NCBI GenBank assembly: GCA_030141605.1
Contig: JAQGDQ010000637.1
Location: 57,933 to 121,932 of the forward strand
DNA: 64,000 bases
DNA from: Tubiluchus corallicola
Taxonomy: Eukaryota > Animalia > Priapulida
Direction of reading: 5' to 3'
This document shows, one piece after another, positions 22,101 through 25,100 of the stretch; the first letter of the stretch is position 1, and each line of letters opens with the position of its first letter. Made by a program: the position numbers and the translations under genes. The notes under the pieces were generated by a model that saw only the letters and a list, made by a program, of their open reading frames with translations, searched no databases and was not told where the DNA came from.

Positions 22101-25100
22101 TGACAACTACCACGCAATGTGCAGATCTAACTGTACATTATTTAAAAATACTTGCTTAAACCGCTGCCAAAAAATGTATGAAAATTGCTTTGTGGCACTT
22201 AATAACTCTTGTGAAATTCCAGCTCATTGTATTAGAAACACGGAAGCTGCTTGTGAGGAAACATTGTCTATTGAAGCTGACCGTGAAATCTGCAGACGTT
22301 TTTACCATGATTGCAGTAAAAACTACACAAATGACTGTGAGAAGAATTTCTTCAGATGCAATGGTTCGTGTTATCAATGTCACCCCAACTGCGACTCAGC
22401 ACTTGTTGAAGATTGTACGTCAGATTGTGACCAGACACTGTTGTACTGCAAATCACCTATCAAGGAATTTTGCAGGATGGAAACCATAGCCTACAGGAAA
22501 ATATGTGCCAATATCACCTGGCTAGACGAGCCTACAAACATCTCCAAACCAGAGGAAAACATTACCTCAGGTATTGGCAGGCAAACGAAGACATTCCCGG
22601 ATGCACTGGAAACTTCTTTGAGTGCAAAACATTATGCAGAAATTTTATATTACATAGCATGCAAATGTGCAATTTAGTTTTATTAGTAAACATGTAGTGT
22701 TTGTATTTTGTACTTTTAATAAAAACATATAATAGCATGAAACCCCATTATAATGCACCCTCCCTCTTTATAATGCCAAGCTCACTTATTGCCAAATTTT
22801 CTTGCAAAACAAAATGTCTATACATTTGCAAGACATGTATGTTTTAATGCACCGTGATATAACACCAAACCCACTCAATGCCAACATTTTTTGCAGTTCC
22901 AAAGTGGGTATAAAGAGGCTTGACTGTAGTTTCACTAGAATTCAGATTTCAATTTTTATTTTATAAATACTATCAAACCAGGAATGCACGCACCATTCTA
23001 CCCTGGCTTATCATTAAAGCATTGATTCAAAATAATTGTTTAGTTGCAGAGAATGTGATATATCAGATCTCAATACTGACTGCAGACGTGGAATATGCAG
23101 GTACAGCAGCAAGTGTGTCAGTACAGCTGCATGGAAAGCATAAAGACTCTGATAAAATTACCTTGGGCAGCTCTTTTGGAAGTTTTAGACGTGCACAGTA
23201 AGGAATTCTTAACATCTTTGTAATATCTGACATAATTTAAAATAGGCAAGTACATTTGTATACACATGTATCGTTCATATGTATGTTTGTATCGTTCATG
23301 CAGAGTGTTTAGTTTAACTTTTGATACTGTAACGTTTATATAGGTTATCCGATTTTCAATGATGCTAAATTTGATTGGTCATGGAAAAGTCTTTCTTCAG
23401 CAAAACCTATTTTATAAACATGTTTTGTCAATAATAAAGGTAGACTATAAAAATCAGAGAAATCTTGCTGGTTCACTATTGTGTCTCTTCAGAACTGATG
23501 ATTTCAACATATCCACTATATTTGTGGGGACGCTAAATTTCATAAGTGTTTGGCATGACAACAGATTCTTTGGACCCGCCTGGCTATTAGAGAAGGTTGG
23601 TATTTTTGTTCAGAAGTTTCTGCAAGTGCGTTTGTTGATCATGTCAATTTGTTCAAACTGGTTATTGCAGGTGTGTTTGCTGATCATGTCAGTTCATTTA
23701 GAATGGTTATTGCAGGTGTGTTTGCTGATCATGTCAGTTTATTTAGAATGGTTATTGCAGGTGTGTTTGCTGATCATGTCAATTTATTTAGAATGGTTAT
23801 TGCAGGTGTGTTTGCTGATCATGTCAATTTATTTAGAATGGTTATTGCAGGTGTGTTTGCTGATCATGTCAGTTTGTTTAGAATTGTTATTGCAGGTGCG
23901 TTTGTTGATCATGTCAATTTGTTCACGCTGTTTATTGCAGATGCATTTGCTGATCATAATCGGTCTAGTTTAAATGAGTACCTTGCTACATGTTGTTTTC
24001 AAAATTCCAGTAGCAAATTTAGTATGAAAATGAATAATTGTTTCAAGCTTGTGGTAACTTGACAACACACTGTGTGAGTGACAGCACTTGCTCTATCTAG
24101 CAGTAGTCACTAGCTGTGCAGCATACAGCGTGTTATTTCAGACATGTGCACATGGTCGCATGCGCACAACAGCCAAACACACCAGTGTGCTGGGCTGTGA
24201 AGCAAACAGTACTACCCTCACGTTCCCTGAACCTTACAAGTATAAATTAAGAACTAAAAAAAAGACTTATTATATTGAATATTATTGATAATATTGAATG
24301 AAAATAGGGGGAGCTGCAATTCCATAGTACCTATACACGAACCGCCACTGGGTTAGGGTTATTTGTTTTTTCTTGTGATTTTTTACTTGTGACTTTTTTG
24401 CGACTTTTCCTTTTACTTTTTATCAGTGACTTTTTAGCTGTGACATTTTTACCCAAGGCCTTTTTACCTGGATTCATTTTGGCATGTTTTCTCAGATTAA
24501 ACTTGGTGTTCGTGTTTTCTTGAGTTTTAGTTTGTTACGCCGTCAGTTTTCTCTACGTGATCTCATATGCCATCTGTCTATGTGTATGAATAAGTAAATT
24601 GTTTTAAAGGATAATTAGTTTTATAGGTTAATGGCGACAAACAAAAACTTCACTATGTTTCAGCTACGATGATAAATCAGTTAATTTATGCTTAGGTTGT
24701 AATCCGAAAGAGTTATCTGGAATATGCATGTCCGTGCATGACGTGGCTTGAGGGAGATCCGTCCACTAATTTACAGAAAATTCCGTGTTTTCTTGCTGCT
24801 AATTATACACCACCAGGTATAAATTAAACAACAAGCTAAACTGCTTTCAATTGGCTTTGGATGTAAACACTTTTCTTCATTTCTTTTAATACGTCTATTT
24901 ATCTGTGTTACTGTGTTAGTAAGACTGAAACCTTTATCACTGTATTTTGTTGAATATGTAAAACACATTTTAAAATATGATAATTGGCTTCTTACAGATG
25001 TTGAAATGTTGATTATGGTATCAATTATGGAATACGTTTGCAATGAAGAATCTTGCTCTTATTATTATCATGTAATTGGTCTCTGAATGCATTTGTCATG

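Follow-up and report, generated by a model that had tools for sequence, protein, structure and literature searches.

Polycystins of the PKD1 (polycystin-1) family, such as vertebrate PKD1, PKD1L2 and PKD1L3 and the REJ proteins of sea urchins, carry REJ and GAIN/GPS regions, a first transmembrane segment (TM1), a cytoplasmic PLAT and the polycystin and channel domains, with one PLAT per polycystin unit. In sea urchin and human PKD1 proteins this PLAT has been described as 'always found intracellularly' (PMC1934368), and a planarian polycystin has a single PLAT after TM1 (10.1101/2024.07.17.603829). Cleavage at the GPS divides polycystin-1 into an outer and a membrane fragment, the stalk of the latter may be a tethered agonist, and ectodomain ligands have been proposed to flex the GAIN domain in polycystin-1 and adhesion GPCRs (PMC9672506); in C. 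elegans, LOV-1 has an outer fragment that undergoes secretion and separate trafficking (PMC9829181). Moreover, about 2,700 models indicate that polycystin GAIN domains contain an additional beta-sandwich between strands S9 and S10, including an extension of S10 (PMC11697300, a paper whose main text does not contain the word PLAT). The present analysis concerns a stretch of 64,000 nucleotides (nt) of the priapulid Tubiluchus corallicola (contig JAQGDQ010000637.1, positions 57,933 to 121,932 of the forward strand; hereafter the window), where a gene for a PKD1L2-like polycystin encodes, besides its normal cytoplasmic PLAT, a second PLAT located before the GPS and TM1 and predicted to be extracellular.

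The extra PLAT (residues 1178-1297, also given as 1176-1295) is encoded in frame by three exons, which, like all features described here, lie on the forward strand: 23044..23197 (phase 1 to 2), 23493..23595 (phase 2 to 0) and 24696..24816 (phase 0 to 1). The four junctions that join these exons to one another and to their neighbours had been named in a preliminary description of this DNA, and all of them show AG/GT sites with compatible phases (1/2/0/1); the motifs quoted there are likewise present in the sequence. In a Pfam run on single exons, the first exon matched positions 1-44 of the PLAT model (E 1.7e-4; 22.7 bits, marginally below the 23 required; Atlas PLAT clusters 0.95) and the second one, in which the motifs WHDN and WLLEK and a sequon for glycosylation occur, matched positions 49-82 (E 0.039), with no Pfam match for the third exon alone. 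Once spliced, the domain scored 58.2 bits on a polycystin-PLAT profile (independent E-value, iE, 7e-18; positions 4-112) and 79.4 bits on a LOXHD1-type-PLAT profile (iE 2e-24; positions 4-110), neither of which had been built with this domain among its members. These matches confirm the earlier prediction that exons 23044-24816 encode a complete PLAT. The domain would lie outside the cell, since it precedes TM1 in a family of known topology. PLATs can fold and bind partners extracellularly, as those of pancreatic and lipoprotein lipases, which are secreted, soluble enzymes rather than receptor ectodomains.

The hand-built model of the whole gene comprises 38 exons (990-43750), all with AG acceptors and GT donors, and yields a single open reading frame of 2,499 residues (aa), open at its 5′ end and with a stop at 43750. 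The domain order, taken from the single-exon matches, is EGF, REJ, GAIN, Cys-rich segment, PLAT, GPS, TM1, PLAT, membrane segments, polycystin domain and channel domain. The first exon inside the window encodes the EGF domain (990..1103; Pfam EGF E 5e-9), eight exons the REJ domain (1974..8840; Pfam REJ on five exons, two of them above the cut-off, best E 2.8e-10) and ten exons the GAIN subdomain A with the first part of subdomain B (10019..21083; in-frame model and alignment with the GAIN regions of relatives). The GPS is spread over two exons, one encoding the YNFSLSFY strand (extended S10) and the GPS first half (25256..25359; Pfam GPS 2-21) and the other the second half, the stalk and TM1 (27011..27241; Pfam GPS 28-43, hydropathy); each half-match is below the cut-off, and the region can be aligned with that of relatives. 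TM1 (aa 1385-1403; 27152-27208) is the first hydrophobic segment in a hydropathy scan of the protein part inside the window, and it is directly followed by the cytoplasmic PLAT (aa 1424-1551), which is encoded by three exons (28787-28907, 29584-29743 and 30195-30333; Pfam PLAT on the middle one) and reaches 157 bits on the polycystin PLAT profile. The remaining membrane segments and the polycystin and channel domains occupy ten exons (33162..43750; Polycystin_dom E 1.9e-22, PKD_channel E 1.5e-30), and the 13 hydrophobic windows found from aa 1385 on by this crude scan, two of them overlapping, are compatible with 11 membrane segments. Judged by its predicted protein, the gene is a PKD1L2-like polycystin of the PKD1 family; it departs from the textbook picture of a single, cytoplasmic-only PLAT by the second PLAT before the GPS, which is regarded as a variant feature and no ground for exclusion. 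In a tree of the GPS-TM1-PLAT core with the insert left out, the protein groups with a protostome PKD1L2-like clade (95/90).

The three PLAT exons form a block of 378 nt (126 codons) flanked by phase-1 introns, so that the block as a whole could be skipped in frame but its single exons could not. This symmetry, together with weak acceptors, would suit a cassette under regulation that only a minor isoform includes, the main protein being made without the extra PLAT. Such a cassette seems distinctly improbable, given that the gene model of Priapulus described below includes the block, that the three exons must go in or out together, that their donors are ordinary (4.4-6.2 bits) and that their codon usage (0.18-0.21) is typical of the gene, whose other exons range from 0.04 to 0.68; the same values lie near the 95th percentile (0.21) of 413 stop-free intron windows. 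The in-frame acceptor at 23050 outscores the one at 23044 proposed previously (6.4 versus 1.0 bits), and the first PLAT exon may begin 6 nt further on. The exons might also be foreign to the polycystin gene, as a pseudogene fragment or a nested gene that both gene models, being predictions, have misjoined. However, the block lacks a start and a stop codon of its own, the similarity with Priapulus runs on across the junction into the GPS exon, and two deeply split genomes have the block at the same position, all of which makes a false join so improbable that it can nearly be dismissed. The exons thus assigned to the polycystin protein very probably belong there. As for sequencing runs, the contigs of run X1 are DNA-like, extending over exon-intron borders without splice joints, and have no bearing on expression; one of them covers PLAT exon 1 with 2 differences and another exon 3 with 5 listed changes and no stop, and run X2 gave repeat matches only. 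Over window positions 19100-30400, the X1 contigs cover the same exons at both ~99% and ~92% identity, and could represent a pair of diverged alleles, a paralogue or another species.

A search for the same layout among relatives started from a GAIN-GPS-TM1 profile run over 1.84 billion representatives, which gave 1,383 matches at E up to 0.001. The best 150 of these 1,383, plus others, made up a survey set of 217 proteins that represents the top of the match list and includes isoforms and near-copies. GPS-TM1 was matched in 192 of the 217, and in 170 of them the sequence ahead of the GPS is 150 residues or longer. Among these 170 informative relatives from the top of the list, an upstream PLAT occurs in one, and in none of the 154 where that sequence reaches 300 residues or more. 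The sole case is XP_014681546.1 of Priapulus caudatus (UniRef A0ABM1FAS5), a RefSeq model annotated as 'polycystic kidney disease protein 1-like 2', in which Pfam detects two PLAT stretches and a GPS. It shows 45% identity to the window protein over 450 aa, unbroken across all four junctions, and shares the order Cys-rich stretch, PLAT, GPS, TM1 and PLAT as well as two gained cysteines, differing from it by keeping the Asp of a GTD motif, the Glu of an FE motif and a canonical H-L-S triad. The identity amounts to 54/117 residues (46%) in the extra PLAT (41% in its exon 2 and 44% in its exon 3), 29/65 (45%) in the linker and GPS and 37/63 in the surroundings of TM1, and the cytoplasmic PLAT has 64/119. 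The extra PLAT is therefore as conserved as the GPS over a deep split, which indicates that these exons are under selection as protein. The architecture suspected of being new in the preliminary description is rare, then, but not unique.

In the core tree (45 rows), the window and Priapulus proteins are sisters on long branches (0.61 and 0.57), within a protostome clade (95/90) that also contains proteins of Tachypleus, Anabrus, Owenia, Lingula and molluscs, none with an upstream PLAT. These protostome PKD1L2-like proteins (Owenia P0001, Lingula, Haliotis, Mytilus, Pecten, Tachypleus, Anabrus) have the same GAIN, GPS and membrane layout, whereas at the site of the extra PLAT those read by eye show a short loop. 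The simplest reading would be a single gain on the lineage shared with Priapulus. The arthropod members of the clade are those of Anabrus simplex (P0053), an insect protein with a long C-terminal extension, and Tachypleus tridentatus (P0077/P0214). Two further candidates with two PLATs, P0038 of Pelobates cultripes and P0068, were rejected, as each consists of two GPS-TM1-PLAT units in tandem; in these records, models of PKD1L2 and PKD1L3, as neighbouring genes, have probably been fused. A search with an extra-PLAT profile, limited to proteins of 285-2000 aa, returned nine multi-PLAT proteins and the Priapulus protein, and no third species. In the literature searched, where most subscription papers were out of reach, no paper on a polycystin with a PLAT before the GPS was found, and neither 'two PLAT domains' nor 'extracellular PLAT domain' occurred in the 20 papers listed for each; a term look-up in 10.1101/255570 and PMC13402157 gave no occurrence of the word PLAT. 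The layout appears to be latent in a public RefSeq record and undescribed.

With regard to its origin, the extra PLAT shares 29% identity with the cytoplasmic PLAT of its own gene, and the two differ in their intron positions (phases 2 and 0 versus 1 and 2), as noted previously. When compared with 286 domains, its best match was the extra PLAT of Priapulus (97 bits, reciprocal), followed by LOXHD1-type repeats (up to 58.7 bits) and polycystin PLATs (up to 49.1). Median scores against LOXHD1-type and polycystin PLATs were 39.8 and 31.2 for the window domain and 59.6 and 34.9 for the Priapulus one. A tree built from 56 selected domains pairs the two extra PLATs at 100/94, the window domain being a long branch, and places them among the LOXHD1-type domains, outside the polycystin PLATs (one side at 99/99), with the nearest LOXHD1 repeat grouping at 98/68. 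A recent internal duplication was rejected on the basis of the low identity and of this position: constraining the extra PLATs together with both genes' own PLATs costs 31.8 log-likelihood units, with a marginal p = 0.046 in the approximately unbiased (AU) test. The position outside the polycystin clade and among LOXHD1-type domains agrees with the earlier proposal of an imported domain; the donor was likely a gene of the LOXHD1 or lipoxygenase type. Among solved structures, the closest are the PLATs of coral lipoxygenases (E 1.4e-11), narrowly before that of polycystin-1 (E 1.2e-10). LOXHD1 and lipoxygenase PLATs are thus the nearest type by score, tree and solved structures, but they are cytoplasmic and come in tandem arrays or fused to enzymes; here, one LOXHD1-like PLAT stands inside a polycystin and the tandem PLAT repeats that characterize LOXHD1 do not occur.

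The site of the insertion also accommodates more than a PLAT. As had been proposed, the domain lies N-terminal to the GPS and TM1 in a loop between the YYVGL (21826-21840) and YNFSL strands, according to the gene model and the alignment; the graft into this GAIN loop, however, also includes a segment of about 240 aa, with 32 cysteines in its aa 943-1155, which precedes the extra PLAT. The 901-nt exon 21670-22570 encodes both the strands assigned by alignment with 11 relatives to the polycystin-specific extra beta-sandwich (21670..21840), YYVGL being the last of them, and the Cys-rich insert with a short linker (21868..22570). Masking of the insert brings YYVGL and YNFSL into alignment with a pair of strands that, in the 11 relatives displayed, have a short and variable loop between them, and about 12 residues separate the extra PLAT from the YNFSL strand. 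The distance between the GPS cysteine and the preceding core strand is ~10 residues in ADGRG6, ~165 in Owenia and ~500 in the window protein (the latter two by eye). The loop previously ascribed to GAIN subdomain B is, by this alignment, one of the additional beta-sandwich between S9 and S10 (PMC11697300), and the graft of Cys-rich segment and PLAT would sit in its last loop, before the extended S10; the structure search returned no solved polycystin GAIN structure among its matches.

The cysteines of the segment recur at spacings of 7, 8, 11, 15, 19, 22 and 26 in excess of shuffled sequences, which likely reflects helices stapled by disulfides. No match was found in Pfam, in Atlas or, among 181 fetched proteins, with phmmer, a result that shows neither novelty nor absence; the stretch 21868-22506 is possibly an undescribed disulfide-rich helical domain. 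In Priapulus, nine cysteines occur in the corresponding 51 residues at the same place, and the pattern C-x3-C-x6-C-x7-C, shared with the window protein, is present in two of the 217 proteins; otherwise the two Cys-rich parts match weakly (24% identity, with 21 of 1000 shuffles reaching an equal score). Five GT sites after the YYVGL strand, examined by eye and unscored, include no strong phase-1 donor for skipping the Cys-rich part. A smaller and different Cys-rich insert is found in an earlier loop of the extra beta-sandwich in a Mya arenaria protein (P0086, ~aa 225-270), which suggests that this subdomain often accepts inserts.

Two positions of the extra PLAT seem to have been refitted in both species. 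Cys1274 (24729-24731) stands in both extra PLATs where a Phe is found in 116/116 LOXHD1-type and 152/168 polycystin PLATs (the first gained cysteine thus occurs in 0/116 LOXHD1-type domains), and Cys1293 (24786-24788), at the end of the last strand, where a cysteine occurs in 7/116 and 8/168, respectively. The second cysteine follows the first by 19-21 residues, and the pair exists in two of the 286 domains, the two extra PLATs. A new Cys1274-Cys1293 disulfide is likely, because the two positions are neighbours in the PLAT topology. These cysteines and the glycosylation sequons would fit a purely structural role, in which the Cys-rich segment and the PLAT form a cap or spacer, without an outside ligand, by which the GAIN domain is stabilised or shielded. 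Sequons do not discriminate, being present in 35/116 LOXHD1-type and 64/168 polycystin cytoplasmic PLATs too. The site is a variable loop in relatives, and the insert-free orthologues of arthropods, annelids, brachiopods and molluscs indicate that the channel does not need the insert. However, conservation at the level of the GPS across a deep split exceeds what spacers usually keep, and Cys-rich segments and PLATs are typical interaction modules, so that a mere cap is quite unlikely.

The preliminary description suggested a possible sensor of membranes or lipids, a proposal now weakened. On this view, the extra PLAT would be an extracellular Ca2+-dependent sensor, lipoxygenase-like, docking on an apposed membrane, a vesicle or a lipid particle. 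The narrow lead of coral lipoxygenase PLATs among solved structures speaks for it, as does the retention of the TxD, AGT, D-x-F and HDN positions in both species, and lipoxygenase PLATs bind membranes via Ca2+, which is bound by PLAT loops, though not universally (PMC7436259). In the window protein, however, Ala1198 replaces the GTD Asp (Asp in 91/116 LOXHD1-type domains) and Arg1225 the FE Glu (Glu in 100/116), both of which are retained in Priapulus, and two conserved glycines are lost in both extra PLATs. The acidic loop residues are presumably Ca2+ ligands, and the loss of two of them makes a lipid or Ca2+ sensor less likely. Moreover, the high Ca2+ level outside cells would keep a site of this kind saturated, and anionic lipids are scarce in outer leaflets. 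Altogether, this role can be regarded as rather unlikely, if somewhat less so than the structural cap.

The reading put forward here, tentatively and with slightly less than even confidence, is that the extra PLAT serves as an extracellular, disulfide-stabilised binding handle through which a bound ligand or a pull would be relayed to the GPS and the stalk. Such a pathway would start with the splicing of the PLAT exons into the main mRNA, which is very probable. The PLAT itself would derive from a donor of the LOXHD1 or lipoxygenase type and have entered a phase-1 intron through exon shuffling, once, in an ancestor shared with Priapulus, a step held as probable. The GPS of the window protein would then likely cleave itself, with the cut falling between Met and Thr of the H-M-T triad (27056-27064), also found in Owenia, and leaving the extra PLAT on the N-terminal fragment; this step is considered fairly probable. 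The weak part of the scheme comes next: an outside protein or a matrix partner would be bound, mostly without Ca2+, and the load on the PLAT would loosen the GAIN domain, expose the stalk and tune a polycystin channel complex in a sensory cell. The loosening is suggested by the direct junction of the PLAT to the extended S10 strand that carries the GPS cysteine.

Several points weigh against the binding-handle reading. The ligand is putative, and the topology is a prediction, the signal peptide being outside the window. Inclusion of the PLAT exons in the mRNA is likewise predicted from the genome, and their acceptors are weak (1.0, or 6.4 at the alternative site, 2.5 and 3.1 bits, within a leave-one-out range of -1.3 to 12.4), with 13-23% of intronic AGs scoring as high. 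The H-M-T triad departs from the H-L-T/S consensus. The layout is known from two species, the record of Priapulus is a partial prediction of 460 aa, and the sister grouping of both proteins in the core tree has 87/89, below the tool's star. Finally, single-sequence AlphaFold gave a predicted local distance difference test (pLDDT) score of 36 for the Cys-rich exon, an unusable model, and of 37 for the Priapulus protein, so that the disulfide, the fold of the Cys-rich part and the geometry are putative.

The window also contains other features. Downstream of the polycystin, a gene (44781-45485 and ~47700-47970) shows, by eye, a signal-peptide-like start, a leucine-rich-repeat-like exon, a cysteine cap, a Thr-rich linker and a terminal hydrophobic segment, with no significant Pfam match, and is followed at 51669-54049 by exons matching Pfam SNF (E 3e-15 and 3e-17), which belong to a gene for a sodium:neurotransmitter symporter (SLC6). 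By eye, a repeat dispersed in several copies, which likely represents a non-autonomous mobile element, was recognised in introns at 8404-8580, 15518-16200, 17085-18060 and 42250-42600; some copies are flanked by (TA)n, and two bracket a (GTG)-rich tract at 16320-17000. Long tandem minisatellite arrays map to 2340-4570, 23620-23950, which starts just past PLAT exon 2, 30430-31440, 55340-57070 and 59700-60950, and several of them yield long spurious open reading frames.

A last question is what this locus means for the polycystin family. Its PLAT has been treated as single and always cytoplasmic (PMC1934368); here, a second one is predicted to lie outside the cell, is kept in two deeply split genomes and seems to have been adapted to an oxidising compartment. 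The locus bears on the route from ectodomain signals to the polycystin GPS and stalk, and on the role of the extra beta-sandwich of the GAIN domain. A graft that can be removed in frame marks a site of this sandwich that tolerates large insertions, and offers a test with and without it. In addition, the insert may serve as a rare genomic marker of the lineage shared with Priapulus. The boldest version of the proposal, which is doubtful at present, is that a protostome lineage including priapulids would have placed a cytoplasmic membrane-binding domain on the outside of a polycystin, with a disulfide and a Cys-stapled arm, and attached it to the strand that locks the GPS. If so, this protein would constitute a switch made by nature, gated by ligand or force, that acts on the tethered stalk, and would have built into it a test of the control that the polycystin ectodomain exerts over the channel.

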